A program made the translations under genes and the position numbers. This document shows positions 1 to 46,820 of a stretch of DNA of 50,421 nt, piece after piece (position 1 is the stretch's first letter; each line of letters begins with the position of its first letter). The stretch is from Hydrurus foetidus (Eukaryota), in NCBI GenBank assembly GCA_900617105.1, contig UYFQ01000771.1, positions 1-50,421 on the forward strand, read 5' to 3'. The notes beneath the pieces were generated by a model, which saw only the letters and a program-made list of their open reading frames with translations, was not told the origin of the DNA and ran no database searches.

Positions 1-1
1 C

Positions 2-1567
2 GGCGATGACGAGTGCAATCTTGATCGATGACGCATTGACATTACCGCAGTATACTGCGTAGGGGTCGAAGTCGACCCAGGGTATCATGAGATCACCACG
101 ACCTACGAGGCGGGCCTTTTTGGTACCATCAGTTTTGATACTGAAGAGCCACATCATTGGTACGAGGTGCTGGCCGGTGAAAGGGACAGACCGGAAGCAG
201 TTGTTGACTTCAAACTTTGTGCGCTCAGTGTTGATGGCCTGTTCCCACTCTGGGTACTGCATTGCGGTCCAGAAGTCTTTGGGGATGTAGGGATCCTTGA
301 TTTGGACTGCGATGTTGTAGTGCAGGACACGGAAGAGGTGAACAGGGAAGCATGTGGAAGAACTGGTGTAGGTGGACCAGTATATCATGTCATCGTTGAC
401 TGAGTGCTCTGTCTCAGGTACAGGGGTTATATAGTCGGGGTCGATAAGGGGTGCAGGTGAGGGGAGGCCGGGTAGGTCGACTCGCTCAGGCACCACAATA
501 GGGTCATTATCATTATCAGTATAGTAGAGGGACGGGATGAGGGCGAAGGCCTCGTCGGTAGGGAAGTGTGCATCTGAGTCATGCTTGAAGTTGTTGTGCA
601 TGTCGAAGATGACATCCTTACTGACTCGAACAGTACCGTAGGTGTTCTTGGGTAGTATTTCTAATACTAAATATTGTGGTACTAGTATAGATGTAAAACT
701 ATAACCAACGAACCGAGCACGGTAGGCACGAGGTGACCCAACTTTACTTTTCTGATCTTTGGGTGCGTGCTTGACATAGCAGGGTGCCCAGAATGGTCGA
801 AGCATCCTGATGTCCACGTGTTGCCCAGAAGTGAAGTGATACGGAGAAGTACCAATACGCTTGTTAAGGTTAAAGGAATGAGTAACACATGCATAGGACA
901 TTGCAAGGTCCCAGAACTTCATTGGCACATGCGGAACAGGGGTTATCATGGCAACGTTGGTCTTGAGAGCTACAATGCCGACTGCTCGCTCAGCGATGCC
1001 GTTGGCATGTTTGTCACGAGGTGCAGTGTGCTCAAGTCGGTATCGGTATCGGGCGCAAAGCGCAGTAAATTCTTCAGATCGGTAGTTGGCCTCTGGGTCA
1101 TGCCGGATGAAGCGATCAACCCCAGGGGTATTGTGGTTCCATTGGGGGGTTAGGTCGAAGAAGGCTGCAATGCGGGCACAGAGTTCAGAGGCGGACCGGT
1201 CTTTTGTATATACAGGATAGTATTGTCCCGACGCGAGGTCGGTGAGGATGTGAGTGTAACGGTAGTTACGGAATGATGGAGTCGAGTGGGTATAGGCATC
1301 CAAGGAGAACTGCTGGCCGACGAGGGTAGTGGTGTCTCTGTGAATGCGACGATAGTCTGTGGATGCTTGACGCATTGCGCCATGGGCGCATCCAGGACAG
1401 ACCGGACGGGAGGTGTGTGCATCTTTGGTGGTGAAGCGAGCATTGAGGGAATGATCGCGGTGCCATGCCATGCCTGGAAGACCGGGGTGGCCTGTGGCTT
1501 GATGCACGTGGTCGTACAGTGAAGCGGGAGTATAGTGTGTGACCAAAAGACTCTCCCGAGTGGTTGG
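2..1567 (-). CDS. Copia A pol: integrase and N-terminus of reverse transcriptase (open to the window edge; absent from the ORF track)
   Basis: Manual translation in the frame of 1568..3508: LYDHVHQATGHPG...VCPGCAHG...FSLDAY...RHDPEANY...ANGIAERAVG...FWDLAM...ARFVGY...VSKDVIFD...WEQAINTE...WLFSIKTDGTKKARLVGRGD; no stop codon down to position 2. Confidence 0.92.
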
Positions 1568-3658
1568 TCAGTAGGGAGTCTCCACGTAGAGGCCGTCTTG
1601 GACGGTTCCACGGGTGACCTCCTTTCCATGCTGAGCTACCAGTGCAATGTAGGGAAGGGCTGATGCAGTCTCATAGAAGCGGAAGTCTTTATGAGTGAAG
1701 ATGCCGATGAAGTGGTCGTTGGTGACACCGCCAGCGCAGAACTGGGAGACAGAGACAAGGGTGCTGTCGCCTAGTGCAGGGAGAAGGAGGGTGCTAAGCT
1801 CCAACGGTCCGAGGCTGCCTTGGTGTGTTGGTGTCATGGACGGACCGAATGCAGGGGTGACTGTGACGGATGTGCTGACAGGTTCAATGCTGGTAAGACG
1901 TTGGGAGCGGCCGGTGCCAGAGCGTGAAGCACCAGAGTCGAAGATGACCTTGTCGGGGACGTGGAACGAGTTGAGTCTCTCATGTTGGGACTTGACGACG
2001 AATGTGTTGAGCTTGGAGTCGGAGGTACCGCCGGATGGTGCAGGAGGGCGAGCTGATGCAAGCGGAGGGCGAGTACTGTTGAAGGCATGTCGGACATTTG
2101 TCGAGCGTTGAGATCCGACTGGTGGAGTCATTCGGTGGCGCTGGGCACGAGGCATAGTGAAAGGCGAGTCGGATGCAAGTGGTTGCGCGGCTTGCCAACG
2201 TTTGAGTGACCCGGTAAGAGGGTCAGAGGGTGTCGATGGAACAGGTGGTAACGGAGTATTGAACTCCGGAAGCGTAGTGGGAATCGATGCAGAAGGTGAG
2301 GCGGAAGAGGATGCGGACGAGGACGAGGTAGTGTCTTGACGCTTAGTGTCCCCTTGAGCCTGGTCTTTCTGGAATGCGATGCCGCGCTTCCTGGCGTTGT
2401 ACCGCTGAAGTTCCATGGATGCGTCCGGTGGTACCCATGGGGATGCGTCTGATGGAGGGACCATGAGACGTGTGACGGCTCCATGTAGGTAGTTGACATA
2501 AGAGAGGGCGCATCGAGGGCCACTGATGTTATGTGTTGGACAGGACATGTTGTACGGGAGGAAACAGATGGAGTCTTCGACAGAGGATTCCGAATCGCTC
2601 TCATAGTTCCGCAAAGTGTATCTTTGGCGTATGTTCTGTGGGGCTGTAGATGCTGCGAGGTCCCTGGCGAGAGATACTGTGCGGTAGTGTGACTCGGTGG
2701 GTTCAACAGGATCGGGTCCGACGAAGAGGCTGTTGGGTGTAACATGAAATGCATCGGGTAGGACATGCTGGATTACGACTCGAATAGCTTGGATGAATGA
2801 CTCGTTCGATCCAGTTCGTGTCATAAGACCGTCAACGTGCGCATCAACTTCCGTGAGCATGAGTATGCGAAGTGTGGGAATGTTGTGCCAGGAGTTGCCG
2901 GGTGCATTGGCATATCGGGCAAGCTGTGCTGCGACCCAGGAGGCACAGTCGTAGATGAGGACACTTTCAAATATCGCCATGTGGTCTGGACTGATCTGGT
3001 CGTCGAGGTACAGAGCAGTGTGGACGAGGAAGTAAAAGAAAATGTTCCCGACTGTGGACTGATAGGTGGTGATGTCTTCAATCAAGGTTGGATTGAAGGT
3101 GCGGTAGTGCCCTGGGTCATACTCAAGATTGGGTGGAGTCGGCGGCTCAGTGTTGGCGAGCAGCAGGTTGCGAGCAATCTTGTGGATGAGGTTCATATAC
3201 CGAGAGTATCCGTCTCTGACATCAGCGCGGCAGTTGCTGAGGGTGGTTGGGGATACCCAGCCGAAAATAGCGAGGTATATATGAGGCGCCGGTGTAGGGG
3301 ATCCAGGCAAGGCGGGACGGTTCACATAGATGATGAAGTCATTTGCTGAGAGGGGCTGCTGATGAATGCGGTGGTGGACCACAGTGTAGTACTGAAGGAT
3401 GTACGTGGAGCATTGTCGGCAGATACCCTGGAAGACAGTGGAGGAGGTGACTTCGTCATTGGTGAGGAAGGCCCAGGTACGTGTGAAGGCATCGACTTCT
3501 TCTTGCATTGGGGTCCCATATGTTGGCGAGGAGATGTTCTGATGGCGCGGCGTGTCCCATGCTGTAGCATTCTCTGGGGCGACAGGAGTCGGGGGTACCC
3601 AGGAGTACTGGGGTAGATGCTGGTTGAGTATGTTCGGAACGTACGTACGGTCGGAGCA
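1568..3658 (-). CDS. Copia A middle segment: unknown ~550-aa region followed by aspartic protease
   Basis: The 646-aa ORF extends without a stop up to 3658. Protease motif VIFDSGASRS near 1930-1950, then TLVSVSQF and DGLY motifs typical of Copia PR/pre-integrase. Bounded by in-frame TAA (3659-3661) and TGA (1568-1570). Confidence 0.85.
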   Translation of the reverse strand, partial: CSDRTYVPNILNQHLPQYSWVPPTPVAPENATAWDTPRHQNISSPTYGTPMQEEVDAFTRTWAFLTNDEVTSSTVFQGICRQCSTYILQYYTVVHHRIHQQPLSANDFIIYVNRPALPGSPTPAPHIYLAIFGWVSPTTLSNCRADVRDGYSRYMNLIHKIARNLLLANTEPPTPPNLEYDPGHYRTFNPTLIEDITTYQSTVGNIFFYFLVHTALYLDDQISPDHMAIFESVLIYDCASWVAAQLARYANAPGNSWHNIPTLRILMLTEVDAHVDGLMTRTGSNESFIQAIRVVIQHVLPDAFHVTPNSLFVGPDPVEPTESHYRTVSLARDLAASTAPQNIRQRYTLRNYESDSESSVEDSICFLPYNMSCPTHNISGPRCALSYVNYLHGAVTRLMVPPSDASPWVPPDASMELQRYNARKRGIAFQKDQAQGDTKRQDTTSSSSASSSASPSASIPTTLPEFNTPLPPVPSTPSDPLTGSLKRWQAAQPLASDSPFTMPRAQRHRMTPPVGSQRSTNVRHAFNSTRPPLASARPPAPSGGTSDSKLNTFVVKSQHERLNSFHVPDKVIFDSGASRSGTGRSQRLTSIEPVSTSVTVTPAFGPSMTPTHQGSLGPLELSTLLLPALGDSTLVSVSQFCAGGVTNDHFIGIFTHKDFRFYETASALPYIALVAQHGKEVTRGTVQDGLYVETPY

Positions 3659-5233
3659 TTAAGGGAGAGGCGGCATTAGAAGATGGACGAGTTGGAGATC
3701 GCAGTGGTGAGTGTCCTGATGGAGGAGTCCTGGCGGAAGTGCTAACTCGAGAGGAGGATTAGACGGTGTATCCGGAGGAGGTGCTGGGTCAGTGTCGGTG
3801 ACTCGGAACATGTTGAGGGAGAAGCGCACATACCCGGAGGGTTCGGCGTTATCCAAAAGCGTGTTGTTCTGCCATCCGTCCTCAGGGTTGATGTTGGGTC
3901 CGTTGGTAAGAAGCTTCATGGGGATGTTGCTCTTGAGGTAAGGGACGCGACCATCAATACTCGTCACTGGGAAGGTCTGCTTGGGAGGGTACTTGCCCTT
4001 GGCTTTGATCCGGTTCTTGTCCGTGACTGGAGCGGATCCAGGTGGGGCAGGAGGATGTGCTTTGCCAGAGGGAGGTGTCGCTGCCGGTGGCTTAGCAGGA
4101 GCATGATAGTACTTGCACTTGTTACCGAGAAGGCAGGTACCAGCGAGGAACTTGCGGCAGGCTTCAGGGGTAGTGGACAAGGCAGCTATCTTGACCGGCT
4201 TGTCTTGTAGGAGGGCATACTCGGAATAGACAACAGCTCTCTCCAAAGTTTGGTGATAGGTGAGCATGTTGCTATGGCAGGACATAAAGTAGGATTTGGT
4301 GTTGGGGCGGTGGTCGTTCATGAAGGCGTTGTGAAGGAATTGAAGGCGCTCCTGCTCGGTGCTCGGTCTGGCCTGGGCATACTCGAATTCTGTCATTAAC
4401 GTTGTAAACCTCACTAAATCCTCTTGAAAACAAGTAGCCGTGGAGCCCTTGAAGTTTTGTAGAAGCCGCCGAAGTCGGTTGATGTCTGCTTCAGTATGTC
4501 CGTAGTAGTGCTTGTGCATACGTTTATAAATAGCGATCCCATCGCGAGAGGTAAAGGAATCGGCACATAGATAGTGGGTAGACTCGCTGAAAGCGTTCAA
4601 CATGACGTTGTAGAGACGTTTCTTGTCGTGGGCCCATCGTGTAACATCGTCGGCGGGTACATAATTGAAGGTGCCGTCCAAATTCTCCGACGTTGTAGGC
4701 TCCGAGTATCCTGATGGGTTAAGTCTCGTTGGGATTGGCTCGCGACGCGTGCCCATCGCCATTGGGTAGAGTCCAACGACATGGAGCATGTTGTCGAGAG
4801 CTTTGAAGCGCTTGTTAGATCCCACAGTCGTTGTGGTGATCTGGTTTTGCTTGATGCTATCCATTTCTGAAGAGGTCGTCAGAACGAGATCGAGTTTTAG
4901 CCGTTTTAGCTCCAAAACGGATTCCAAAGCGGCATTATATGATAGCCCATGTGCTGAAACTTCTGCCGAAGTTTGGCGCGGTGGCGTGGCTTCCTCTGCA
5001 TGGGAGCCTCGTCGAGGTCGGTTTGGTGTCGAAGGATTTTGACGATTTGCCGTCGAGCTGGTGACCAAATTTTGAGTTTGGGCTCTTATGGCCTCGGCGA
5101 CACGTTGATCGAACTCTGCAAGGGTCATGGAGAGCATGCGCGGCAGCTGGGCGCGGCTGGGAGTCTCTAGCCCAGTTGGGTCATGGTATTCCTCGTTGTT
5201 TTGGTCTGTGTTGTCGGACGATCGTAGCATCAT
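3659..5233 (-). CDS. Copia A gag-like protein with CCCH zinc finger
   Basis: First ATG after the PBS is at 5233. Gag-like core (DGIAIYKRMHKHYYG...RLRRLLQNFK) and C-x7-C-x5-C-x3-H motif CRKFLAGTCLLGNKCKYYH at 4103-4159. Confidence 0.8.
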   Translation of the reverse strand: MMLRSSDNTDQNNEEYHDPTGLETPSRAQLPRMLSMTLAEFDQRVAEAIRAQTQNLVTSSTANRQNPSTPNRPRRGSHAEEATPPRQTSAEVSAHGLSYNAALESVLELKRLKLDLVLTTSSEMDSIKQNQITTTTVGSNKRFKALDNMLHVVGLYPMAMGTRREPIPTRLNPSGYSEPTTSENLDGTFNYVPADDVTRWAHDKKRLYNVMLNAFSESTHYLCADSFTSRDGIAIYKRMHKHYYGHTEADINRLRRLLQNFKGSTATCFQEDLVRFTTLMTEFEYAQARPSTEQERLQFLHNAFMNDHRPNTKSYFMSCHSNMLTYHQTLERAVVYSEYALLQDKPVKIAALSTTPEACRKFLAGTCLLGNKCKYYHAPAKPPAATPPSGKAHPPAPPGSAPVTDKNRIKAKGKYPPKQTFPVTSIDGRVPYLKSNIPMKLLTNGPNINPEDGWQNNTLLDNAEPSGYVRFSLNMFRVTDTDPAPPPDTPSNPPLELALPPGLLHQDTHHCDLQLVHLLMPPLP

Positions 5234-5315
5234 GGCCGACTTGAGATATCTGTTGTGTTGAGATACCGTTGATATATTGATACTATATCGATGATTGCTG
5301 AACTTTCTATGCAAT

Positions 5316-5323
5316 CGCTACCA
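5316..5323 (-). promoter_or_regulatory. Primer-binding site of Copia A (TGGTAGCG, initiator tRNA-Met type)
   Basis: Minus strand reads ...CTCACA|TGGTAGCGA directly after the LTR end; TGGTAGCG matches the start of the Ty1-type iMet PBS. Confidence 0.75.
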
Positions 5324-5831
5324 TGTGAGTCAGACTGTGGAGTGAAGCGAGCTACCTGTTGGCTGCGGAAGCGCAAAGGAAAGACTGGCTGATGGAAGTG
5401 GTCTCGGAAGACGTGTTTACTTACAACGATCAAGTAGTAAAACAACTGGCGATGATATCAGAGAAGACAACCATCAAAGAAGCAAAGCAAAGCATCCATT
5501 GTGCATGAAATGGTGATCGCCGAAGTGGAAACATATTCAGCGAATATTCAAGTTGGCGATTGAGCAATGGGCGGAACCCTCGCTGCTCATGAAATCGGAT
5601 GCTTGGTGGAAACCGGATACCTGGTGGAAATCCGGATGCTTGGTGGTGAAAAACCGGATGCTTGGTGATGGCCCCGAAGGGGGATATCGCTAGAAGAACG
5701 ATGAGCGTATGTACACAACAGTGTATGGCGGTGTTTTGGGTGAGGAAGCGCTACACTACTTGTGACATGTGAATGCTAATCTACAGATGAAACTATGCTA
5801 ACAGATCATGCATGAATATGCTGGACTGACA
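5324..5831 (-). repeat. 5' LTR of Copia A (~508 bp)
   Basis: Termini TGTCAGTC...GACTCACA (7/8 inverted repeat, TG...CA) abutting the PBS. The partner LTR is outside the window, so the outer boundary is inferred. Confidence 0.7.
5597..5670. repeat. Four ~19-22 bp tandem repeats (CCGGATGCTTGGTGGAAA-like) within LTR A
   Basis: GGATGCTTGGTG/GGATACCTGGTG occurs four times in succession. Confidence 0.75.
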
Positions 5832-6587: not shown

Positions 6588-7066
6588 AGAATGGTAGAAA
6601 ATTGACCTTTGATTTTTGTTTAGAAGTGTTTTCGGCGACTTTTGACCCCTAAAACCCTGGGGTAAATATCCCCATATTTTGTAACGATTATATCTTTCAA
6701 AAAAAAAATTTTTTAATCGCTTCATATGGCTAATAAATAACGTTTAGATGTACCTTGACACAAAACCTGGAGTTGGGAGACTAAAAATTGAGAGAGTTAC
6801 AACGTTTCTAACTTCCCCCATATAACGGACGGGTACGGTGACCGTGGGGTTCGCCCTGAGTGTTCTGTAATGTTACAGCATAATAAAATTGACGATGGTG
6901 CATTGGTACAGGACTGAAAATTGTGCTCTTTTTCATGTCAAATAATTTTTTTTTCATGCAGCTATACGGTTCTAAAAATAAAAACGGTTTTTCTCTAGTT
7001 TCCGTTGTTTCCTCCCTTCCTATACCTAGACTCAAATCTGAGGCCAGCTTTCTAAAAGTCGAAGGC

Positions 7067-7388
7067 TGTTGGATATATCTGAGTTCATGACACGAACACA
7101 TTATGTGTACTTATGCATTCGTACAGCGGCGTACGGATTTATCTGTGTGTGTGTGTGTGTGTGTATTACGAAGATGTACGAGCCTAGAAAGTCACCGTAC
7201 TTCAAGAAGTAGTGTAAGATTTGAATTTGTAATGGCATCGAAATTGACTGGTGCCTTCAGTGGGGATGAAGCACAGTCTAATTAACAAGTGATTATCGAT
7301 ACTCTATATCCCATTTCACGAGTCTTGGCAAGTGAGCTAGTGTTCCGAAGGTCCACGTTCTACCCAGGAATCGAAAGGTTCTCCAACA
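7067..7388 (+). repeat. Copia B 5' LTR
   Basis: TGTTGGA...TCCAACA terminal inverted repeat; direct repeat at offset 5223; contains (TG)10. Confidence 0.96.
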
Positions 7389-7400
7389 TAATTAGACTGT
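7389..7400 (+). promoter_or_regulatory. Non-tRNA primer-binding site of Copia B, complementary to LTR 7273-7284
   Basis: TAATTAGACTGT is the exact reverse complement of ACAGTCTAATTA at 7273-7284; no TGG-starting PBS is present. Confidence 0.75.
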
Positions 7401-7412
7401 CGAGGCATTGGC

Positions 7413-10400
7413 ATGCCACCTAAATGCGCCGTTGAAGCGGTGAAAAGCACAGAGGAATGCATCCTTCAAATCGGCAAATTTAATAACATCATAAAATGGC
7501 GCGAAAGCATGCAAACGATAGTCACAGAACTATACGGCATAGTCGGGATGTTCTTCACTACGGATGTGAGATATGAACTCCCGCGCACCGCAATCAAATA
7601 TCCCGAAGCATCCGCATCGGAAGACTCAACATCAGAATCAGAAGACGAACTCGAAGGCGAGGCCGTCAGACCGATAGTACCGCCCGAAGTACGTGCCGCG
7701 TAGGCAGCGGGAAAAGCAGCGAGAGACGCCGCACGAGAAAGTCGAAACGAGCGACGTCGCCGCAGCAATGACAGATCGAGAGCAAAGTATAAAGAGGAGG
7801 AATACCTCCAGAGGAAACGCGACCTCAAGGCACAGAAGGAGCACGAGCGCACTATCTTCCCCATGATGTGGAAGCGTATGTCGACGGACTCCCAGAGTCG
7901 CGTCAAGGAAGAGGACGGGTATCGCACTGCCTACCTCACACTGGACTGTGTCCTACTATGGACCCTCATAAGAAGAACACACCTCACCCACATGTTCGGC
8001 GACACGGACCCGATGAAGGAAATCAATCAGCACGAACAGGAGAGTAAGTACGGGATGATGAGGCAGGGCGAGAGAGAGTTGATCACGACCTTCAAGGCCA
8101 GATTCGACGAGCAAGTCCTAGCGAACGATGCAGTTGGAGTCGCCAAGATCACCGACACCCTGCGTGCACTCGACTTCATCGGAAAGCTCGACCCAAAGCG
8201 ATACAGACGGATGATGACGGAGATGAGAAACGACGCACTCAGACAGAAACCGGATGCTTACCCCAAATCTCTCGCTGCCGCCTTCAGGATCGCCTCACAG
8301 TGGCGCAGTGACGGCACTCCAGCCACGGTACAATCACCCCTAGGGGCGTCGGCATTCGCCACGGAAGAAGTCCACGTCACCGCATCCAAGGATACCGAGA
8401 AGAGAACCGGGAAGACCGGAGGGGTCAGAAAGAAGTCGCTAGAAGACGTTGACTGCTACGCCTGTGATGGAAAGGGACACTATGCGAGGAATTGCCCGAA
8501 CAAGAAACCGTCATCAGAGAAAGTCCACGTATCGAAGGCTGAACCTGACAGTGACGATGAGAGCGAGAGAGACGATTGGGGAGTTGCACTCGTCACCGCA
8601 ACCGAGAAATGTCTGTTCTCACAGTACGATGTGCTGCTAGACAATGAAGCGTCATTGAACATCTTCAGCAACAAAGACCTCCTTACCGGAATCAGACGGG
8701 CAGAGAGGACGATCAAAGTAAGCGGGATACAATCTGGCGATGGAGTGACTGTGGATCGCGAAGGCGAGTTCGGCGAGTTCGGAACAGTTTTCTACAGTGG
8801 AGAGGCGTCAGCTAACATCCTATCATTTGCGTCACAGGTGGATGCAGGAGCAAATATCAGATATGACTATGTGAAGGACTGCTTTACTCTACGTCCTAAA
8901 GGAAGCATGAATGTATATCGTTTCGGGAGGAAGACAGTTCCCGGGAGCGAGGGCAGATTCTACTCCTGCGATTGGAGGAGTGTAGAAGTCGAGTCAGCGA
9001 TGATCGCCACCGTAGAACAGAACTCGCGAGCCTTCACGAGGCGCGAGATAGAGCGAGCGAGGGCTGCGCGAGAACTCATGGCTCGGATGGGATTTCCCTC
9101 GGTAGCAACAGCGATGTCGATAGTCAACGCGGGGAGCAATTTCGATATATCTGCGAGAGACTTCCAAGTTGCTGAATCGATTTGGGGTAGAGACTTGGCA
9201 TCGATTAAAGGGAAAACAACGAAACGAGCTACCGTAGCTGCTGATGTAACGATCAAGTCTAAAATCGTCCAGAGGGATCAGGTGCTATCAATCGATATTA
9301 TGTTTATTGACAAAATAGCTATACTGATCGGTGTGGCTACTCCTCTAGGACTAACTATGGCCTACAGCCTCAATAACTTGGTGCTAAAGAAGTCCAGCCG
9401 AGCAACAGAGCACGTGCGAAAAGGAATAGCCCATTTCCTAGGAGTGCTGGGATCGCAGGGTTTCAAGACATCAGTAATTATGAGCGATGGAGAAGGCGCA
9501 GTGATGACGCTGGTGGACGAGCTAGGAAAACTTGGAGTGGACGTCGATATCAGTGGAGCTGGTGGACACGTAGCAAGAGTTGAGCGAAAGATCAGAATCA
9601 TCAAGGAGAGAGTTAGGTCCCACGCAGCAGGGCATTTGTCTTTTACTTTATCGAGTGTAGGTATCGTTATGTGCGTACTGTACGTAGTGTCACGGCTGAA
9701 TTATGAACCGTACAGTGAGCGAGAGCACGGACCGAGTCCTAGAGAAGCATTCATTGGGAGGAAACCAGACGGGAAAAGAGATTTTAGATGCTCATTTGGT
9801 GATTATGTGCAGTGTACTGTACCTAAAACAGACTCGACTCTAAAATCTCGCACCGAAGATTGCATTGTTATGCTCCCACTTGGGAACCGAACTGGAACAG
9901 TGAGAATGCTGTCACTAGCGACAGGGAAGCTAGTTAACCGAGACCAATTTATCATATTGCCAATGCCGGAGTCAGTAATCAAGAGGATGAATGCACTTGC
10001 GCTTGCAGACGGTAGGGTGAAAGGCAAGGGTGACATGGAGAAAACTGACAGGCCATTTGAGCAGATTAGCGACATTGTAGACGGCCTACCTGAGACGATG
10101 GAAACAATTGTCAACGAGGGTGTAGACCCTTCAACTGACCTACATGACATGAACCACAGCCCCGAGTTGATATATGAAGAGATAGTCGAACGAGTGGATG
10201 TAGCACATCCGGACGAGCAGTGCGAAGAGGAGACTGTATATGCCGATGACATGATACCGACAGTGATGCCAGCAGAGAGAGTGCGAGTGGAACCGAGGGT
10301 GGTGGACATGGACGACATGATGAACAGCTTCAGAGAGCTAGCAGTAGGAGTACCTCACACTGCACCACTCGATACAGCTGACGAACACGGTGTGCCGGAA

Positions 10401-12221
10401 GACTACGGTGAGAATGGTGCGATTGACATGGGTGCACAGGAACCGAACACACCAGTAGCTACACCGCACACGTACTCAGCGCACGGACACAGGGTGATCC
10501 ATAGATCGGATCTGATGGACATGTTCAGATCAGACAAGCACGGGACAGCACTACTGACACGAAACTACGACTCTGCAGGAGGTGACTGGGGTGAGTTCGT
10601 ACTAAATATATCAGTGAACGAAGCACTGAGGACTAGAGGGAAAGATGCAGAGACTGTCATAAAGAAGGAACTGAGTCAGATGATCGCGAAGAAAGTGTGG
10701 ACGCCTGTAGACATACGCAGACTGTCATACGATGAGAAACGCCGCATCATCAGATCGAGCATGTTTCTGAAGGAGAAGTTCCTCGCCAGTGGGGAGTTCG
10801 AGAAGTTGAAAGCGAGACTAGTAGCGGGTGGAGACCAACAAGACAAGACACTGTATGACGACCTATCCGCACCGACTGTTGGGACCAGTTCAGTGTTCAC
10901 CCTGCTGTGCATCGCAGCGCACGAGGGACGGAAAGTCACAGTGATAGACATCAGCGGGGCATATCTTAATGCCGATATGAATACTGGACTCACTGTGCAT
11001 ATGAGACTAGACAAGAATATGACAGGAATGATGGTGAAGCTCTCACCAGAATATGCGGATTACGTGGATACACGAGGGAGCGTGGTGGTGCGATTAGACA
11101 AGGCTCTCTACGGGTGTGTCGAATCGGCAGCTCTATGGTATGAGAATCTCAAGGAGAGCATGAGAAAACTCGGGTACACACCAAACACCATAGACATATG
11201 CGTGTTCAACAAGCTGAGCGAAACGGGAGTGCAGTGCACAGTCGCAGTGCATGTGGATGACCTAATGATTACTAGCACTGACTCAGGCATGATAGAGTCA
11301 CTAGCAGCAGGGTTGATGGAGAGATACGGTGACATCACCCGAAAAGATGGGCCGATAGTGAACTACCTCGGGATGGTGTTCGATCTAACAGTGAGTGGGA
11401 GTGCTAAGGTGACGATGACTGGATATGTAGACGACATGCTGAGGGAAGTGGGGACGAGCAAGGGTGCACGCACCCCAGCCACCGAGGGGCTGTTCGAAGT
11501 GAGACCGGATGCACTCACAGTGAGTGAGGGACTGAGGGTGATGTTTCACAGGCATGTCGCTAAGATGCTGTATCTAGCGAAGCGTGCGCGACCAGACTGC
11601 CTAACTGCAGTTGCATTCCTAGCAACGAGAGTGACCAAGTGCACAGTGGACGACCTAGCCAAGCTGGATCGGCTCATGAAGTACGTGTGGAGAACGCGAG
11701 AGAGGGGAATAGTACTTGCACCTGGTGTGAAGGGAATAGTGGTGAGTGTGCTGATCGACGCGGCGTTCGGGGTACACGCAGATGGAAGATCGCACACTGG
11801 AAGCTGCATTGTGATTGGAGATAGTGGAGCAGTGCACTGCAAGTCTTCGAAGCAACAGATCGTCACGAAGTCAAGCACTGAAGCGGAGTTGGTTGCGTTG
11901 TCGGACTCAGCGAATCAAGCACTCCACCTGAGGAGCTTCATCATGGCACAGGGACACTCCTGTGGGCCAGTCACTATCCACCAGGACAACATGTCCTGCA
12001 TGGCCCTCATCGACCGAGGACGGTCAGCGGCAGAGCGTACCAGACACATATCGATCAAGTATTTCTGGTTGAAAGAGAGGGTGGACACAGGAGAAGCCAG
12101 GGTGAAGCACCTCGGTACCAAGGACATGTACGCGAACATGTTGACGAAGCCGCTCCAAGGAGCGCAATTCAAGGAAGAAAGAAAGGGAGTTACGGGATGG
12201 CCGGATGAAGACTTAGCTTAG
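7413..12221 (+). CDS. Copia B gag-pol polyprotein with one in-frame TAG at 7701-7703
   Basis: ORFs 7413..7703 and 7863..12221 share a frame with no other stop. CCHC knuckle CYACDGKGHYARNC, PR LLDNEAS, IN SIDIMF/SDGEG/ERKIR, RT KARLVAGG/DISGAYL/KALYG/HVDD, RNase H IDAAF/SSTEAE/QDN. N-terminus aligns with Copia C gag. Confidence 0.93.
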
Positions 12222-12277
12222 ATTATTATTATTTCATAGCGAATGCTTGATAGACAAACTGCGTACAAATGAGTTGT

Positions 12278-12289
12278 GGCAAGAGGGTG
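12278..12289 (+). promoter_or_regulatory. Polypurine tract of Copia B
   Basis: GGCAAGAGGGTG immediately precedes the 3' LTR. Confidence 0.6.
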
Positions 12290-12610
12290 TGTTGGATATA
12301 TCTGAGTTCATGACACGAACACATTATGTGTACTTATGCATTCGTACAGCGGCGTACGGATTTATCTGTGTGTGTGTGTGTGTGTGTATTACGAAGATGT
12401 ACGAGCCTAGAAAGTCACCGTACTTCAAGAAGTAGTGTAAGATTTGAATTTGTAATGGCATCGAAATTGACTGGTGCCTTCAGTGGGGATGAAGCACAGT
12501 CTAATTAACAAGTGATTATCGATACTCTATATCCCATTTCACGAGTCTTGGCAAGTGAGCTAGTGTTCCGAAGGTCCACGTTCTACCCAGGAATCGAAAG
12601 GTTCTCCAAC
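12290..12610 (+). repeat. Copia B 3' LTR (last base displaced to 18218 by Copia C)
   Basis: Identical to 7067-7387 on manual comparison. Confidence 0.96.
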
Positions 12611-12939
12611 TGTTGGAGTATCCGGGAAAAGACACTTCAGTTGTTGTGTGTGCGTGTGTGTGGATCCCGACGGACAGCGGCGTGTACCCTTGGGGTAGTG
12701 GCCGGGACCCCGTTGGTTGCGTGATCTTTACGGACTCTGTCCGTTCAAGATACCCTGATTTGACTGATGCGTGCTTCAATCTTGATGATTGTAAAAGACT
12801 GTGTTGCCGTCGTGACATGGCTGGCAACACAAGTTTAATTATCAAGTGATTAAACAGAGGTCTTATTTCACGAGTCTTGGGTCCGAACTCGACTTACACG
12901 GAGTCACTGAATCCACTCAGATTCACCGAAATCCCAACA
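12611..12939 (+). repeat. Copia C 5' LTR
   Basis: TGTTGG...CCAACA termini; repeated at 17884. Confidence 0.96.
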
Positions 12940-12951
12940 TAATTAAACTTG
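12940..12951 (+). promoter_or_regulatory. Non-tRNA primer-binding site of Copia C, complementary to LTR 12830-12841
   Basis: TAATTAAACTTG is the exact reverse complement of CAAGTTTAATTA at 12830-12841. Confidence 0.75.
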
Positions 12952-12966
12952 AACCAGCGCATCGTG

Positions 12967-15900
12967 ATGCCGCCGAAGAAAGAAGAACTCAAAACTGCAA
13001 GAGAGCCTTGCATGTTGAAGATGGGGCGTCAGAACAACGTGATGCAATGGAAGGAAGAAATGCAAGACGAAGCATGCAGTTTATACGGCATGACCGGCAT
13101 GTTCTTCAGCACCGATGAAAGCCACTTCATACCGTATCCTCGCGAGGAGGATTACATTCCAAGACCTCCACCTCCTGTTAGAGACGAGGAGGAGACTGAC
13201 GACGACGAGTCAGTAGAGGAGGTCGTAGTGGGACCTGCACCTGCACCTGCACCTGTCCCGTTCACAGCTGCATTCCTGGAGAGATTGAGAGCCAATGCGT
13301 TTGAAGGACGCAGGAAGCTAGTCGAAGCGCAAAAGATCGACGAACAAAAGTTGTTCCCACTGATGTTGTCACGGATGTCGACCGCGTCTAAGTCCAAGGT
13401 TCGGGAGGAACCAGGGTACGAGGCTGCGAGGATGAGACTCGACAGTGTCAAACTTTGGGAGTTCATCAAACGCAGTCACCTCACACACGTCTATGGTGAG
13501 GATGATTCGATGCGCGCGGTGAACGTTCACGAGCAGACGATCAGGTACAACTACCTTCGTCAGGGTGATCGTGAGCTCATAGGTGAGTTCAAGACCAGAT
13601 TCGACAACCAACTGGCAGCAAATAGAGGAGTCGGTATGGAGGATGTTGAGGAGTCGATTAGGGCAATCGAGTTCTTAAGCAAACTAGATCCGAAAAGGTA
13701 TACATGTATGCTCACCGTGATGCGTAACAATGCTGTACAAAACTTGCCGAATAGCTACCCTTCTACCTTAGCCGGAGCGTACAGGATAGCTGCGTCCTGG
13801 ACGAACGCGAACGGAGCAGTCCCCCTCGGCGCCGAGCAACATTCCGCGTTTTTGACCGATTTGGCAATGACGACGAAAGAAAAGGGACCCAGAAAGAAAG
13901 TTCATGGGAAAGGTGTTCCGATGAAAAAGAAACCACTTTCATCGGTGATATGTTTCGTCTGTGGCGAAGCCGGGCACTACGCGCGCGACTGCCCGAATCG
14001 AAAAAGCGAAGACCAGGTACTCTATGCTGCCACAGAAGAAGACGTCGATGAGGACGATAGGACCGTCGAGTCGGCTTTCGTTGCCTCGAACGAGGCGGTA
14101 CTCTTCGCCAGGAGCCACGTCCTGCTCGACAACCAGGCGTCCGTCAACGTGTTCTGTAACGCGGACCTGCTTACCGACATTCGTCGCTCCAAGCATGGGA
14201 TCCTGCTCAATGGAGTCCAGGCTGAGACTGAAGCAGTCAGAGTCAATCTGGAAGGAGACTTCGGGGAAGTCGGGCCAGTGTATTACAGTCAGCTCGCCAC
14301 GGCGAACATCCTGTCCTTCGCAGCAATGGTCGACAGTGGAGCTGAGATTCGGTACAGCCAGTCGGATGAAAGGTTCACCCTGAAGCCGAGGGGCAGCCGA
14401 AACATCTACAGCTTTTGTAGGAGACCTGTCAGAGGCTCGGAAGGGAGATTCTACGTCTGTGACGTCGACTCTATGGTGAAGAGAGTGCCGACAAAGCACA
14501 GCGAGGAAACGGTGCTTGTCAACACCGTCAGCGACAACATGACACGGTTCACCAAGCGTGAAATTGCTTCAGCTGCGAAGGCGAGGGAGCTTCTAGCACG
14601 GATGGGATACCCACCCGTAGAGATGGCGATCGCCATGCTGCGCGGGGGGAACAACTTCAAGGTCACCGAGAACGATTTCAGGATAGCTCATTCTATCTGG
14701 GGGAAATGTCTCGCCAGCCTGAAGGGCAAATCTCACAAGATGAAGACGCCCATAGCCGACATCACGCTATGCGCTCCATTAGCACAAAAGCAACAGGTTT
14801 TGGCTGTGGACATTGCCTACATAGACAACACAGCGGTACTTATCGGGGTTGCCACCCCTCTGGACCTCACCCTCTCTAACAGTCTCATACGCTTTGACTC
14901 CACTAAACCCTCTCGATCTGCGCCCGTGGTAAAGGCTGCATTAGAAGAAATGATATCCACTCTCACTTCTAGGAGCTTCTCAGTCAAAGTCATCATGAGC
15001 GACGGCGAAGGTGCCGTCGGCAAAATCACGCCCAATCTCAGGGCGCTGGGGATCGAGGTGGACATCAGTGCAGCGGGTGGCCATGTGGCTAGAATCGAGC
15101 GCCGGATTCAGATGGTCAAAGAACGATGCAGGGCACACATCTGCGGACGACTTCCATTCACTTTAACTGACTTGGGTAACACTATGCTTGTCCTATATTG
15201 CGTCTCACGTATCAACTGTCAGCAATCAGGATCAAGGCCCGGGGGTCTTTCGCCGCGAGAACTTTTTTCCGGACGGCGGGTTGACGGGACCCTGGACTTT
15301 CGCGCCGCCTTTGGGGACTATGCTGTGTGCACCGTGCCCAACACCAATAACACGATGGATTCGCGCACCGAAGACTGCATCGTCATGGGGCCCAATCACA
15401 ACCGCACCGGAAGCTACAAAATGATGTCGCTCGTGTCTGGACGGATCGTATCAAGGGACAACTTCAAGATCCTTCCCATGCCACAGTCCGTCATCCAGAC
15501 GTTGAACTCATGGGCACTACGAGAAGGGAAGAAAATTCCCCGTTCTAAAGTGCATGTATTCGATGAATTGCTGTTTGGAAATCATGACGACAAATCTAAT
15601 ATCCCACAATTCATTACCAACCCCCCCACCCAGGATGGCGTTGTCGACATCCAGATGGGGACTCAGTCGACTGGACCTCAACCTCAACCCGTCATAGCCG
15701 ACCTTCCTCACGCCGACAACGTCATCGAGCTGCCATATTCCGAAGTGGGGGGGGGTACCTGGAGTACTGGACCTTGGGATCATGGCACCTCAAGTGGACG
15801 ATGTCGCCCTACCCATCAAAACTACTGACGCACTCAGTCCACCGCATATCCCCCTGGGGGATCCTTCCCAACCGGTCGATGTACGACATCCACCACCACC

Positions 15901-17761
15901 ACCGATGACAACTGACCTCATCGGAGCTGTACTAAGCGGGTCAGACAGCGCAGCGGCAAGCGGCGCACTACCACCGTCACCTCCTCCTCGAGTCATTGAG
16001 TTCTTTCGCACCGGAGAAGGAGCATTCGTCACGACGAATACGAGCGTACGTACTACAGCCGCTGGATCAGCGACCATCCTACACAGCATCGAGGAAGTGC
16101 TGAAGCGACACGTGCTCGAGACGAGCAGAAACGACACCGCCAACATCAGTGTGAGGGAGGCACTGCGCACTCGGGGTGCAGAGGCAAACAAAGTGATCAC
16201 CCAAGAACTCAAGCAGATGCTTGACAGGAGAGTGTGGGTGCCCATCGAGGGTGCGAAGCTCACCGCGTCGCAGCGATCAGCGGTGATCCGATCATCCATG
16301 TTCCTCAAGCGCAAGAACAATCCCGACGGAACATTCCTCAAGCTCAAGGCGAGGCTCGTAGCTGGGGGGGATCAACAAGACAAGGGTCTGTACGACGACC
16401 TCTCATCGCCCACGGTCTCAACCAGTGCGGTGTTCACACTGCTAGCAGTGGCAGCCCACGAGAACCGACGAGTAGCAGTGGTGGACATCAGCGGAGCATA
16501 CCTCAACGCCTACATGACCAAGGGTGTAGCGGTCCACATGAGACTCGACCGCACGATGACTGGCTTCATTACCAACATCGATCCCAGCTACAAGAAGCAC
16601 GTGGATGCGGGTGGAGGGATCATAGTGCTACTCAAGAAAGCACTCTACGGGTGCGTGGAGAGTGCTGGCCTCTGGTACGACAACCTCAAAGACTCCATGA
16701 GTGCACTAGGGTACACGAGAAACGCGTGCGACCGGTGCGTATTCAACCGGATCGGACCGGATGGAGTCCAATGCACTGCGGCCGTACACGTAGACGACTT
16801 GCTCATCACGAGCAAGAGCAAATCCCTGATGACTCACCTAGTCGAAGGGCTGCGCAATAGGTACGGTGAAATCACACTTACCTACGGTCCCATTGTTAAC
16901 TACCTCGGAATGCGTATAGATCTATCCATACCAGGGCGTGCGGAGATCACCATGCAAGGATACTCGGACGAGGTCGTGTCCACATCAGGGGTGCTCGGGA
17001 CAGCGCGATCACCCGCAACCGACGGGCTATTCGAGACAAGAGAGGGCGCTGAGCTAGCAGGGGAGGCAGCTAGAGTGTGGTTCCACAAAGCTGTCGCCAT
17101 GGTCCTATACCTCGCCAAGCGCACCAAACCCGAGTGCCTCACCGCTGTGTCGTACCTCACCACGCGAGTGACCAAGTGCACGGTGGACGATCTCGACAAG
17201 CTGCAGCGTCTCATTAGATACATCAGAGCAACCCGGGACCATGGACTGGTACTGATGCCGGGTGCAGGGGGGATCACTGTGAAGCTATACGTGGACGCAT
17301 CCTACGGAGTCCACCACGATGTGAAGTCCCACACTGGGAGCTGCATAGTGATCGGAGACATCGGAGCGGTGCACTGTAGGTCGAGCAAGCAGCTCATCGT
17401 CACCAAGTCGAGCACCGAGGCGGAGTTAGTGGGACTCTCCGACTCGGCCAACCAGGGCCTATTCATCCGTACTTTTCTTATCGCACAGGGATACCACATG
17501 CCGGCGATGACGATCCTACAGGACAACCAGTCCTGCATGGCGCTCATAGCGAGGGGGCGATCAGGAGCGGAGCGCACAAGACACATCCAGATACGCTACT
17601 TCTGGGTCAAGGAGCGGGTGGACAAGGGCGAGGCAAAGATCGAGTACTTACGCTCGGAGGACATGTACGCCAACGTACTTACCAAGCCGCTCCAGGGTGC
17701 ACAGTTCGTGCGAGAGAGAGGGTGCCTCACGGGATGGGCACAAGAGACAGCGAGCAATTGA
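12967..17761 (+). CDS. Copia C gag-pol polyprotein, frameshifted at G9 run 15747-15755
   Basis: ATG at 12967 (MPPKK; B starts MPPKC). CFVCGEAGHYARDC, LLDNQAS and IN in the first frame; RT/RH (KARLVAGG, HVDD, YVDASY, SSTEAE) in the +1 frame. Removing one G joins the two frames. Confidence 0.93.
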
Positions 17762-17883: not shown

Positions 17884-18212
17884 TGTTGGAGTATCCGGGA
17901 AAAGACACTTCAGCTGTTGTGTGTGCGTGTGTGTGGATCCCGACGGACAGCGGCGTGTACCCTTGGGGTAGTGGCCGGGACCCCGTTGGTTGCGTGATCT
18001 TTACGGACTCTGTCCGTTCAAGATACCCTGATTTGACTGATGCATGCTTCAATCTTGATGATTGTAAAAGACTGTGTTGCCGTCGTGACATGGCTGGCAA
18101 CACAAGTTTAATTATCAAGTGATTAAACAGAGGTCTTATTTCACGAGTCTTGGGTCCGAACTCGACTTACACGGAGTCACTGAATCCACTCAGATTCACC
18201 GAAATCCCAACA
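17884..18212 (+). repeat. Copia C 3' LTR
   Basis: Near-identical copy of 12611-12939. Confidence 0.96.
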
Positions 18213-18440
18213 CCAACAAAGGCCAGGTTCGCTCTAGCCTACTGTGCACTATCCACCCTCAACTCTCAGAGCACCTTCCTACAGTATTCCCGTCGATAAG
18301 TCATGGGATATCGACGGTGTCAAATCGGTTTGCCAACAGTTTTGACGGAGCGAAGCGAAGTAAACTGTGGCAGAAGAGAGAGCATTCTTCGTATCGTCTC
18401 TGGTCTCGGTGCTGTAAAACTGTCGTTACTTTCGACCAAA

Positions 18441-19532
18441 ATGAAGTTCAACATCATTTACGAGGATTCGTCAGGTGCTTCGGAAAAGTTTGTCGCTTCC
18501 ATAACTGATTACTTAAAAATTGAATATGATCAGTTGCTTCAAGGCCGCAAAATGAGTAATCTCTTTTTAAAAGACACTGACACAAAGATGTGGATTCGCA
18601 TCCCTTCCATTAAAGTACTGCGCTGTCTCTTGTCAGCTGTCAGTGATGAAGTAGCAGCTATATCAATCATATTTTCCGAATTAGATGTGTCGCCAAATCA
18701 ATCTCGTCAATCCAGCCCTGGAAGTGGAGAAAATCCAGATGAAATTGACGACTTTTCTCATCGCGTGTCTAGGATGCGATTGGATTTTAAAGATGAATCA
18801 ACGCTTGGCGGGAGGTCTGCTGCCAACTCGTTGGAATCTTTCACTATGAATAATGTGTCGGACATATTGGCGCAGGAGTTACTGATTCTTCCTGATGACG
18901 ATGATCCTGAAATGACCATAAGAATTCATGCGCCCTCACTTTTGGTGTACATAAGAAGCGAAGTGTTTGACGGCACGCATATATACGACATGACGGTACA
19001 AGCCCAGTCAGAGAGCAAAATGTTGAAAACTACTTTGAAAAAGAATATATGGACTACTTACTTATTAAGAGTGAACGGTCGTTCAGGTATATTTCTGGAT
19101 TTCATGGCTTCTTCATTAGGAAATGTAACTATGCTCGATAGGTCTCTTCTGGAACTACACCAAAAAAGTATCCTATGGAATAAAGTAAAGGTCTTCCATA
19201 ATGATCTCAAGACGTTTGGACAAAGCGCAGAAGCTCAGAAGCGTCTAGATGCAGACCCGATGGCATTTTGTTTCATGTCTTCCATTTATTTTACTGAAAT
19301 TGAGCTGGAATATCTTTATAGTTTTCCTACTTCGTCAGGGTTAACTTGTAAAGAATATCTAAGTGCTTTGATTGAATCCAAAATTGGTTCCGGAATCAAA
19401 AATGCTACATTGTGTACGTCACATGATCTTGCGACCGCCTTTGCCAAAATATACGGGATTCGGAAAGAGTACTCGAAGGATACACAATTCAAGAAATTTT
19501 TAAAAGATTTTGGAAAAGTCCGAAAAGTATAA
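18441..19532 (+). CDS. Hypothetical protein, ~363 aa, no recognised domain
   Basis: Long uninterrupted ORF in AT-rich DNA (track 18303..19532); start at 18441 (AAAATG) is a guess. Confidence 0.55.
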   Translation: MKFNIIYEDSSGASEKFVASITDYLKIEYDQLLQGRKMSNLFLKDTDTKMWIRIPSIKVLRCLLSAVSDEVAAISIIFSELDVSPNQSRQSSPGSGENPDEIDDFSHRVSRMRLDFKDESTLGGRSAANSLESFTMNNVSDILAQELLILPDDDDPEMTIRIHAPSLLVYIRSEVFDGTHIYDMTVQAQSESKMLKTTLKKNIWTTYLLRVNGRSGIFLDFMASSLGNVTMLDRSLLELHQKSILWNKVKVFHNDLKTFGQSAEAQKRLDADPMAFCFMSSIYFTEIELEYLYSFPTSSGLTCKEYLSALIESKIGSGIKNATLCTSHDLATAFAKIYGIRKEYSKDTQFKKFLKDFGKVRKV

Positions 19533-19967: not shown

Positions 19968-22900
19968 CAAAAATTGTCACCGACTTCATAATAAATTACT
20001 CACTTTTCTACCAAAATTGTAATTTTTTATTATCGACTTCATAATAAATCACTCACTTTATATCAGCAAAAATTAATGGCATTATCATTTTCAGTAACAA
20101 ATTGATAATAAAAAGTAGGAAAAATGTAGTCAATATTAACCCAATTTTAATAAAAAGTATACTGAATAAAAAGTGTCACTCATTTTTTTTCGATCTCAGA
20201 AAACCCTGAAGTCAGCGATTTTTTTTAATCCAACTCACAATTTTAGATGTAAAAAAACGAAAAAATCTCGGCAAATAAAATCCTAGCTTTTTAATTTTAT
20301 CCACTTTTCTTTTATCCACTTTTCTTTTATCCACTTTTCTTTTTTGTTTTAGTATATTAGGAGTGTAAATATACCTCAGCTATGCTGATGCATTTGAGTC
20401 CAAAAGCAAGCATTCGAACTCGTTATCTATGACTTCTATAATGACGTTGCGCAAGCGCAACGGGCGCCTGAAGGGCGCCTTATCTCTAGTCGAACTATAC
20501 AAAAAATTGTCACCGACTTCATAATAAATGATTCACTTTTCTACCAAAATTGTAATTTTTTATTATCGACTTCATAATAAATCACTCACTTTATATCAGC
20601 AAAAATTAATGGCATTATCATTTTCAGTAACAAATTGATAATAAAAAGTAGGAAAAATGTAGTCAATATTAACCCAATTTTAATAAAAAGTATACTGAAT
20701 AAAAAGTGTCACTCATTTTTTTTCGATCTCAGAAAACCCCGAAGTCAGCTATTTTTTTTAATCCAACTCACAATTTTAGATGTAAAAAAACGAAAAAATC
20801 TCGGCAAATAAAATCCTAGCTTTTTAATTTTATCCACTTTTCTTTTATCCACTTTTCTTTTATCCACTTTTCTTTTTTGTTTTAGTATATTAGGAGTGTA
20901 AATATACCTCAGCTATGCTGATGCATTTGAGTCCAAAAGCAAGCATTCGAACTCGTTATCTATGACTTCTATAATGACGTTGCGCAAGCGCAACGGGCGC
21001 CTGAAGGGCGCCTTATCTCTAGTCGAACTATACAAAAAATTGTCACCGACTTCATAATAAATGATTCACTTTTCTACCAAAATTGTAATTTTTTATTATC
21101 GACTTCATAATAAATGACTCACTTTTTCACGAAATAATCAGCAAAAATTAATGGTATTATCATTTTCAGTAACAAATTGATAATAAAAAGTAGGAAAAAT
21201 GTAGTCAATAATAACACAATTTTCATAAAAAATATACCGAATAAAAAGTGTCACTCATTATTTTACATTCTCAGAAAACCCCGGAATCAGCTATTTTTTT
21301 AATCCAACTCACAATTTTAGATGTAAAAAAACGAAAAAATCTCGGCAAATAAAATCCTAGCTTTTTAATTTTATCCACTTTTCTTTTATCCACTTTTCTT
21401 TTATCCACTTTTCTTTTATCCACTTTTCTTTTTTGTTTTAGTATATTAGGAGTGTAAATATACCTCAGCTATGCTGATGCATTTGAGTCCAAAAGCAAGC
21501 ATTCGAACTCGTTATCTATGACTTCTATAATGACGTTGCGCAAGCGCAACGGGCGCCTGAAGGGCGCCTTATCTCTAGTCGAACTATACAAAAAATTGTC
21601 ACCGACTTCATAATAAATGATTCACTTTTCTACCAAAATTGTAATTTTTTATTATCGACTTCATAATAAATGACTCACTTTTTCACGAAATAATCAGCAA
21701 AAATTAATGGTATTATCATTTTCAGTAACAAATTGATAATAAAAAGTAGTAAAAATGTAGTCAATAATAACACAATTTTCATAAAAAATATACCGAATAA
21801 AAAGTGTCACTCATTATTTTACATTCTCAGAAAACCCCGGAATCAGCTATTTTTTTTAATCCAACTCACAATTTTAGATGTAAAAAAACGAAAAAATCTC
21901 GGCAAATAAAATCCTAGCTTTTTAATTTTATCCACTTTTCTTTTATCCACTTTTCTTTTATCCACTTTTCTTTTATCCACTTTTCTTTTTTGTTTTAGTA
22001 TATTAGGAGTGTAAATATACCTCAGCTATGCTGATGCATTTGAGTCCAAAAGCAAGCATTCGAACTCGTAATCTATGACTTCTATAATGACGTTGCGCAA
22101 GCGCAACGGGCGCCTGAAGGGCGCCTTATCTCTAGTCGAACTATACAAAAAATTGTCACCGACTTCACAATAAATGATTCACTTTTCTACCAAAATTGTA
22201 ATTTTTTATTATCGACTTCATAATAAATGACTCACTTTTTCACGAAATAATCAGCAAAAATTAATGGTATTATCATTTTCAGTAACAAATTGATAATAAA
22301 AAGTAGTAAAAATGTAGTCAATAATAACACAATTTTCATAAAAAATATACCGAATAAAAAGTGTCACTCATTATTTTACATTCTCAGAAAACCCCGGAAT
22401 CAGCTATTTTTTAATCCAACTCACAATTTTAGATGTAAAAAACGAAAAAATCTCGGCAAATAAAATCCTAGCTTTTTAATTTTATCCACTTTTCTTTTAT
22501 CCACTTTTCTTTTATCCACTTTTCTTTTATCCACTTTTCTTTTTTGTTTTAGTATATTAGGAGTGTAAATATACCTCAGCTATGCTGATGCATTTGAGTC
22601 CAAAAGCAAGCATTCGAACTCGTTATCTATGACTTCTATAATGACGTTGCGCAAGCGCAACGGGCGCCTGAAGGGCGCCTTATCTCTAGTCGAACTATAC
22701 AAAAAATTGTCACCGACTTCATAATAAATGATTCACTTTTCTACCAAAATTGTAATTTTTTACTATCGACTTCATAATAAATGACTCACTTTTTCACGAA
22801 ATAATCAGCAAAAATTAATGGTATTATCATTTTCAGTAACAAATTGATAATAAAAAGTAGTAAAAATGTAGTCAATAATAACACAATTTTCATAAAAAAT

Positions 22901-37614: not shown

Positions 37615-37883
37615 TGTGGTCTGACGGCGGGGCCTAGGACGGGAGGCGAAGTTGGAGAAGGCGGAGGACGGAAGGCGTGGGCAAACGAAGGCAAAGTCGA
37701 GAGTCGGTGGAATAGACTTGTGTTAGTATCTTACAGTTGAGTATATACAAGTGATGTGTACGCTAAGTGCATTCACGTCATATGTGGAACTAAGACCTAA
37801 AAGTGGAATCTGAGCGTAATATACCTATTGTACCTAGTTAACCTAGACACATTGTCTTCCCTTAGGAATGCAATAAGGCTACA
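37615..37883 (-). repeat. Gypsy 3' LTR
   Basis: Direct repeat of 41870-42138, adjacent to the PPT. Confidence 0.95.
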
Positions 37884-38071
37884 CTACCCCTTCTTCCTTT
37901 TTTGAAGATCTTTGATTTGATATACAGAAAAAAAGAGATATGTAAAACATATATATGAGATATAGATGAAACGATTATGTCAGACTTTTACTGACTAAAC
38001 TCTCCAAAAAAGACCCGTAGGTAAAAAAAATAGGAGAGAATCCTCATGGATAAAGTTTCAAATATATTAAG

Positions 38072-40240: not shown

Positions 40241-40379
40241 AGGTGTGGAAGATATGACAATTGAAAGGAATAGAGTTCTTGGCTATCCATTTTTCAGAAG
40301 AAAGAATGAGATGTTGATGAATTGTATTTGGTTGCGATTGAGATCAAATGAATCGTCACCTTTTGAATGTGTTCTTCGA

Positions 40380-42889: not shown

Positions 42890-46820
<3,931 letters not shown>

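Follow-up and report, generated by a model that had tools for sequence, protein, structure and literature searches.

Two nested retrotransposons, B and C, occupy a 50,421-nucleotide stretch of DNA from Hydrurus foetidus (assembly GCA_900617105.1, contig UYFQ01000771.1, positions 1 to 50,421, hereafter the window). They most probably prime their minus-strand DNA with the 5′ end of their own RNA and not with a host tRNA, that is, by self-priming of the type known from the Tf1 element. Both are recently inserted Ty1/copia elements on the plus strand, with C inserted inside the 3′ long terminal repeat (LTR) of B. In each, the primer-binding site (PBS) that follows the 5′ LTR is the exact reverse complement of a segment of that LTR, called here the partner or predicted self-primer.

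The PBS of B, TAATTAGACTGT (7389..7400, plus strand), adjoins the terminal CA of the LTR and pairs over its whole length with ACAGTCTAATTA (7273..7284, plus strand). In C, TAATTAAACTTG (12940..12951, plus strand) pairs likewise with CAAGTTTAATTA (12830..12841, plus strand). The partner ends 104 nt before the LTR end in B and 98 nt before it in C. The first-pass annotation had reported these four 12-mers with their coordinates, perfect pairing and distances, and all were exact when the sequence was rechecked. None of 2000 dinucleotide shuffles of the LTR of B reached 12 nt of pairing, and none of 2000 for C, the null means being 4.3 and 3.6 nt. When the region from the partner to just past the PBS was folded, the mean predicted probability of the helix was 0.98 for B and 0.99 for C. 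The helix of C can be extended inward by one pair, onto the last A of the LTR. The PBSs of B and C differ at positions 7, 11 and 12, with a matching change in the partner each time, so that the three compensated differences of the annotation were confirmed. As two of these positions are the outermost pairs of the helix, the comparison of B with C is thin evidence on its own, and the argument rests on the relatives. Away from the partner and a ATTTCACGAGTCTTGG motif, the two LTRs align poorly. Searches of the window with ARAGORN and Rfam found nothing. The LTR ends of both elements were set without use of the pairing, from the LTR pairs and the 5-bp target-site duplications (TSDs), AAGGC for B and CCAAC for C.

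The pairing was kept in all 18 distinct relatives that could be tested for complementarity and covariation, a check proposed in the annotation. Each has a perfect complement of 9–16 nt between LTR and PBS, running from the first base after the CA, and the partner ends 53–205 nt before the LTR end. With B and C included, the helix starts at the first base after the CA in 20/20 elements. The letters themselves vary widely: the 20 elements contain 19 different PBSs (for example GCTTAGAAGATTAA, CTTAATCAACTATTGT, CAAAAGAATAAAGAA and TTACCGAACAGAAGT), and at least two types of base pair occur at every one of helix positions 1–15. The match of a PBS to its own LTR averages 12.45 nt, versus 4.65 nt for 380 combinations of a PBS with a foreign LTR, seven of which reach at least 9 nt. 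At most 6 of 1000 shuffles matched the observed pairing length in any of the 20 elements. TGG was absent from the first 6 nt of the PBS in all 20 elements, and the anticodon-arm pattern expected of half-tRNA priming was found in none, which bears out the annotated lack of either site in B and C. These comparisons indicate that the feature is real and lineage-wide. Two details of individual helices were observed: in L069 (reverse strand, around 270–375), the 10-bp helix grows to 14 bp over a one-base bulge, again from the A of TCA, and in L032 (118–133 and the 5655–5670 region), the LTR partner is present twice on one contig, the copies having either A or G at one base, and a G-U pair results in one of them.

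Homologues of the reverse transcriptase (RT)–RNase H region of B numbered 1198 at an E-value of 1e-3 among 7996 scored candidates. The best 120 all came from metagenome or run assemblies, and the only named relatives were diatom proteins. DNA of relatives was taken from two scans, a gag-motif scan of metagenomes and a scan of a prokaryote genome collection. The former gave 26 loci, 14 of which matched B by tblastn; 11 had both the LTR partner region and the PBS and correspond to 10 distinct elements (L095 repeats L082), and the other three (L077, L096 and L097) were set aside as truncated. The latter gave 27 loci, 8 of them with an LTR–PBS junction, corresponding to 7 distinct elements (L032 repeats L033), and L069 was added from the same bins. 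The 19 genome-collection loci with no recognisable junction were left out of the pairing count. L029 was not counted either, having a 12-nt inverted match 40 nt apart and an unclear LTR end. The 27 contigs (L022–L048) carry eukaryotic Copia elements and sit in prokaryotic genome bins, with 12 gag-region matches in a single bin, which points to contamination of those bins. In a viral collection, three protein scans yielded no relative, a further scan gave two unrelated zinc-knuckle matches, and an LTR-motif scan gave 21 loci that were taken as chance. An additional N-terminal region, SET-like by eye, precedes the protease in L026, L028 and L029.

Over the RT–RNase H region, C is 62% identical to B, and the 17 relatives with an RT piece are 36–56% identical. 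A quick tree of this region was built with 46 rows, L043, L046, L047, L076 and L079 being left out for having fewer than 200 aligned residues or no RT. Self-complementary elements are distributed across the whole tree; as it is midpoint-rooted, with no true outgroup, it displays their spread and not a single origin.

Variation within the close family of B was examined by placing contigs of four runs, from three studies, on positions 7245–7425. About 30 positions vary in the loop. Inside the 24 helix positions, only two variants are common, 7279 T>G and 7394 A>C; they are the two partners of one base pair and change it from T-A to G-C in 4/4 runs. Each run also has one contig with a deletion of the single base 7279, and a contig of low depth shows 7391 A>G, which gives a G-U pair.

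The position of the partner suggests where transcription begins. In 16/20 elements, the A of a CA dinucleotide falls on the partner's first base or on the base preceding it (2.0 expected), and YCA is found there in 13/20 (1.0 expected). TCATTCT is described as the most frequent form of the Initiator in Phytophthora, a stramenopile, and the Initiator seemingly occurs in a diatom too (PMC3599244). Since its first base lies at an Initiator-like CA, the partner is likely the 5′ end of the transcript, with a predicted start at the A of 7273 or 7275 in B and of 12829 or 12831 in C. The annotation had left open whether the primer would be the 5′ or the 3′ end of an RNA; the Initiator-like context favours the 5′ end. 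Neither a TATA box 15–40 nt upstream of the partner nor an AATAAA was found in the 20 LTRs. A GAGTCT motif occurs at +33 to +53 from the partner start in 7/20 LTRs (7320..7325 on the plus strand in B, 12872–12877 in C). In many elements, A/TCAAGT directly follows the predicted primer (7285–7291 in B). The relatives noted for these motifs are L075, L082, L086, L087 and L094. Either motif could be a cut-site mark, a downstream promoter element or a packaging signal.

In Tf1, the RNA's first 11 bases form pairs with the PBS, and cleavage by RNase H follows base 11 (PMC7175516). A comparable sequence of events is proposed for B and C. Transcription would begin where the partner begins, at its Initiator-like A. 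The first 10–12 nt of the RNA (9–16 in relatives) would fold back to the PBS and so enclose a loop of about 100 nt. Cleavage of the RNA would come directly after ...UAAUUA, on the model of Tf1 through the RNase H of the element itself, and would free a 3′-OH opposite the first base after the CA. Extension of this 3′-OH by the RT would yield minus-strand strong-stop DNA. From the general cycle of LTR elements, the PBS could be renewed in each cycle as plus-strand synthesis copies the primer; this would explain how the match stays perfect while its letters drift. The proposal of the annotation that these elements supply their own primer is upheld by comparison, through the 18/18 relatives, the turnover of letters with pairing kept and the Initiator-like start, and not by experiment.

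Several points weigh against this mechanism. The lack of a tRNA site is judged from two PBS patterns, TGG and the anticodon-arm rule. The pairing is only 9 bp in L024 and L028, and L068, whose contig includes 98 nt of LTR, has a match of only 6 nt there and is either truncated or an exception. The LTR ends of relatives were chosen after an inverted-repeat scan, which brings a risk of circularity. Terminal repeats by themselves give the same LTR end uniquely in 10/20 elements, tied with others in 4 and not at all in 6. One of those six, L033, has its LTR end fixed by the flank of its 3′ LTR, as B and C have theirs fixed by TSDs, and the pairing pattern is also present in these elements with independently fixed ends. 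No single contig phases the variants at 7279 and 7394, and they occur in unequal shares (45% and 86% in run X1), so that the family variation supports compensation and does not prove it. The CA offsets were selected with the data already in view, and the elements share ancestry, which makes the p-value optimistic. The RNA runs X18–X20 consist of contigs that represent small shares and cover the stretch in fragments, from which starts and expression cannot be read. Tf1 requires two further duplexes in its "pretzel" leader (bioRxiv 10.1101/2022.12.06.519325). The central duplex of the pretzel is present in the B/C lineage, and the two accessory ones were undetected in a coarse 15-nt test: each had p < 0.05 in 1/20 elements, with combined p of 0.20 and 0.17. 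Finally, the in-frame stop of B and the frameshift of C leave the autonomy of either copy in question.

The same LTR sequence might prime as the 3′ end of an RNA, either a transcript ending ...UAAUUA in the 3′ LTR or a short abortive or processed LTR RNA, acting in cis or in trans and needing no RNase H cut of the Tf1 type. The register fits such a primer equally well, the sequence is present in both LTRs, the palindromic TAATTA core would allow pairing between two RNAs, and the accessory duplexes of Tf1 were undetected. However, a 3′-end primer does not need the 5′ boundary of the partner to fall at an Initiator-like CA, as it does in 16/20 elements, and a polyadenylated 3′ end is by textbook knowledge not extendable without trimming. 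This explanation is judged unlikely.

Rather more improbable is that the pairing is a structural stem serving packaging, dimer formation or translation control, like a retroviral U5 stem or the GalEa hairpin, with priming by a protein or an unrecognised host RNA. What is known of priming in the B/C lineage comes from sequence alone, and a precedent for such a stem exists in the fungal Copia element GalEa. Its Conserved Hairpin Site, at the same place and not of tRNA type, consists of a 9-bp palindromic CHSeq1 paired with a CHSeq2 located 12–41 nt downstream, and its authors detected no complement in U5 (Donnart 2017, PMC5445492). Like B and C, GalEa is a Copia without a tRNA site, and its form CTAATTAGT has the same palindromic TAATTA core right after the LTR. 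However, the complement in GalEa is downstream and not in the LTR, whereas in the B/C lineage it is upstream, in the LTR and in the register of a primer, and the palindrome is absent from many relatives. The helix also begins in 20/20 elements exactly at the base that defines the end of the cDNA, and no tRNA-type site stands beside it.

Priming by a host tRNA fragment or other small RNA, the LTR match being a by-product, is very improbable. Half-tRNA priming is described as common in Copia elements (Osser, Bryco, Bianca and FunCo1), but 19 different PBSs would require many RNAs, each also copied into an LTR. No PBS fits the 3′-CCA or the anticodon-arm pattern, and within the family the variant at 7394 has its counterpart at 7279. 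Partners were also considered as tRNA halves with CUA or UUA anticodons, and this candidate was rejected because position 32 and the stem fail. Chance or an assembly artefact is hardly credible: a number of PBSs are rich in AT, and the contigs of several relatives are collapsed or permuted, but the shuffles of B and C, the foreign-LTR control and the recurrence of the pairing in 20/20 elements from separate records stand against it.

Self-priming by the 5′ end of the RNA, the preferred explanation, places B and C beside two known groups. They resemble Tf1 and Tf2 of Schizosaccharomyces pombe and the rest of the Tf1/sushi group (including the plant Tcn1) in having no tRNA site and a PBS adjoining the terminal CA. 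As in Tf1, a perfect complement lies inside the LTR at the likely transcript start, and the primer is 11 nt long in Tf1 and 10–12 nt here. Unlike the Tf1/sushi elements, which are Ty3/gypsy chromoviruses with the order RT-RH-IN (RH, RNase H; IN, integrase), B and C are Copia elements with IN before RT, an RVT_2 domain and no chromodomain hit. Unlike in Tf1, primer and loop vary in length across the lineage, over 9–16 nt and 53–205 nt respectively. Self-priming of Tf1 was shown by experiment (PMC7175516; bioRxiv 10.1101/2022.12.06.519325), whereas the start site and the RNase H cut of the B/C lineage are predictions.

The second group is the plant Ty1/copia lineage TAR, for which a comparable sequence test had pointed to self-priming, as a prediction, in 89% of 203 elements (Neumann 2019, PMC6317226). 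The annotation had taken Copia elements to use only tRNAs or tRNA halves, a premise that does not hold in this form; with this prediction in existence, the mechanism in the B/C lineage is not new in kind. Neumann 2019 (PMC6317226) also cites an earlier proposal of self-priming for Houba and Osr-1. Its criterion, a pairing of at least 10 bp starting 0–5 bp after the LTR, applies to 18/20 elements, including B and C (12 bp each). Like TAR, B and C are Ty1/copia elements whose TSDs are 5 bp long and whose 5′ LTR is followed by a site complementary to the LTR. The definition of TAR is based on plant genomes, whereas the relatives found here come from freshwater metagenomes and a diatom. An origin separate from TAR is inferred, TAR being compared by its description.

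The diatom relatives are three proteins of Fragilaria crotonensis (KAI2499082.1, KAI2500335.1 and KAI2505823.1), 38% identical to B over RT–RNase H. They fall in one branch, with 99% support, together with L034 and L040, both self-complementary; Fragilaria was compared by protein alone. Unlike the Fragilaria elements, B and C belong to a separate subclade. The B/C lineage is linked to diatom elements via the Fragilaria proteins only. For CoDi elements, the available text of Maumus 2009 (PMC2806351) has no passage on priming, tRNA or PBS, and that of Llorens 2009 (PMC2774666) none on priming. No paper on self-priming in protist Copia elements was found in a full-text search that covered few of the subscription journals and Repbase reports. 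The B/C lineage is regarded as a further self-priming lineage, to which the B/C subclade adds a branch whose identity to the diatom proteins is only 38%. A wider proposal is that a large, old clade of protist Copia elements, with more than 1000 protein clusters and including the diatom elements, left tRNA priming independently of Tf1/sushi and TAR. It would have adopted a stripped-down self-primer, consisting of the first 9–16 nt of the RNA, free in sequence and length, lacking the accessory duplexes of Tf1, and with the PBS rewritten in each cycle. The odds of this proposal are considered about even.

All parts of B and C lie on the plus strand. The left TSD of B, AAGGC (7062..7066; right copy 18219–18223), is followed by the 5′ LTR (7067..7388, 322 bp, TGTTGG...CCAACA), 321 nt of which are 100% identical to 12290–12610. 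The polyprotein frame, with the order Gag-PR-IN-RT-RNase H (PR, protease), extends over 7413..12221 with an in-frame stop at 7701–7703 and an RVT_2 match of E-value 7e-25; it is 91% identical to protein P0001 over the 1603 residues of the latter. A purine-rich tract read from the sequence (12278..12289), the likely plus-strand primer, precedes the 3′ LTR (12290..12610), whose last A was moved to 18218 by the insertion of C. The left TSD of C, CCAAC (12606..12610; right copy 18213–18217), borders its 5′ LTR (12611..12939, 329 bp), which has two differences from the 3′ LTR (17884..18212). The PBSs of both elements were located from the LTR pair and TSD. The polyprotein region of C (12967..17761) is in two frames, with a shift near 15749–15756, and contains zf-CCHC and RVT_2 (E-value 2e-21) matches. 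The segment 18213..18223 holds in turn the right TSD of C, the last A of the 3′ LTR of B and the right TSD of B. The insertion point of C is exactly 1 nt before the end of the 3′ LTR of B, and the LTR-to-LTR junction mimics a tandem (12606–12611, 18213–18223). A preference for the LTR ends of relatives is possible from this single case.

The assignment to Ty1/copia is based on the TG...CA LTRs, the 5-bp TSDs, the purine tract before the 3′ LTR (weak in C) and the Copia-type order of Pfam domains, with a zinc knuckle near the N-terminus and RVT_2 near the C-terminus. The RVT_2 scores of proteins of the B/C lineage are only 61–88 bits, and these proteins do not match the plant Copia gag families of Pfam. 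In the integrase region of B and C, Pfam rve gave no match; a D..D(31)E-like motif was read there by eye. A PDB search with the RT–RNase H of B gave 0 hits. Sequencing runs that contain B include freshwater, sediment, biofilm and air metagenomes.

The window contains a third Copia element, A, on the minus strand, covering 1–5323 and cut by the window start, beyond which it extends. A tRNA site of the TGG type, TGGTAGCGATTGC, follows its ...TCACA from 5323 downward, and no LTR complement of this PBS was found, the LTR start not being fixed. Element A is thus an internal contrast to B and C in the same window. Its open reading frame carries long extra stretches. A Gypsy-type element (37615–42138, minus strand) has two identical LTRs of 269 bp, retains little of its RT and lacks a matching TSD. 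Its 5′ LTR is followed by a perfect palindrome, ATATCGATAT (41869–41860), of 12 bp when the last A of the LTR and the next T are counted. The site has no TGG and no LTR complement over 4 nt, and resembles that of GalEa. A tandem array of 32 copies of a 555-bp unit with 98% identity (19969–37614) ends at the Gypsy LTR. Other features are a 410-residue frame with no Pfam hit beside the right flank of B (18300–19532, plus strand), a TTTC microsatellite (44411–44893) and a DDE_1 transposase frame (47270–49057, minus strand).

So far, self-priming has been demonstrated by experiment only in Tf1, a Gypsy element, and among Copia elements it has been predicted for one plant lineage. If it holds for a broad clade of protist Copia elements, it would be a repeated solution in both superfamilies, and it raises the question of whether a Copia RNase H can make a cut in an RNA duplex of the Tf1 type. 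It also bears on the proposal that hairpin priming came before tRNA priming, a possibility discussed in Benachenhou 2013 (PMC3601003). Where an annotation tool demands a tRNA site, self-primed elements would be overlooked or misjudged, and the predicted position of the primer also yields the transcript start of each element. The natural variety of the sequences makes the mechanism directly testable in diatom models. For their hosts, self-primed elements would be ones that evade control by tRNA-derived small RNAs.

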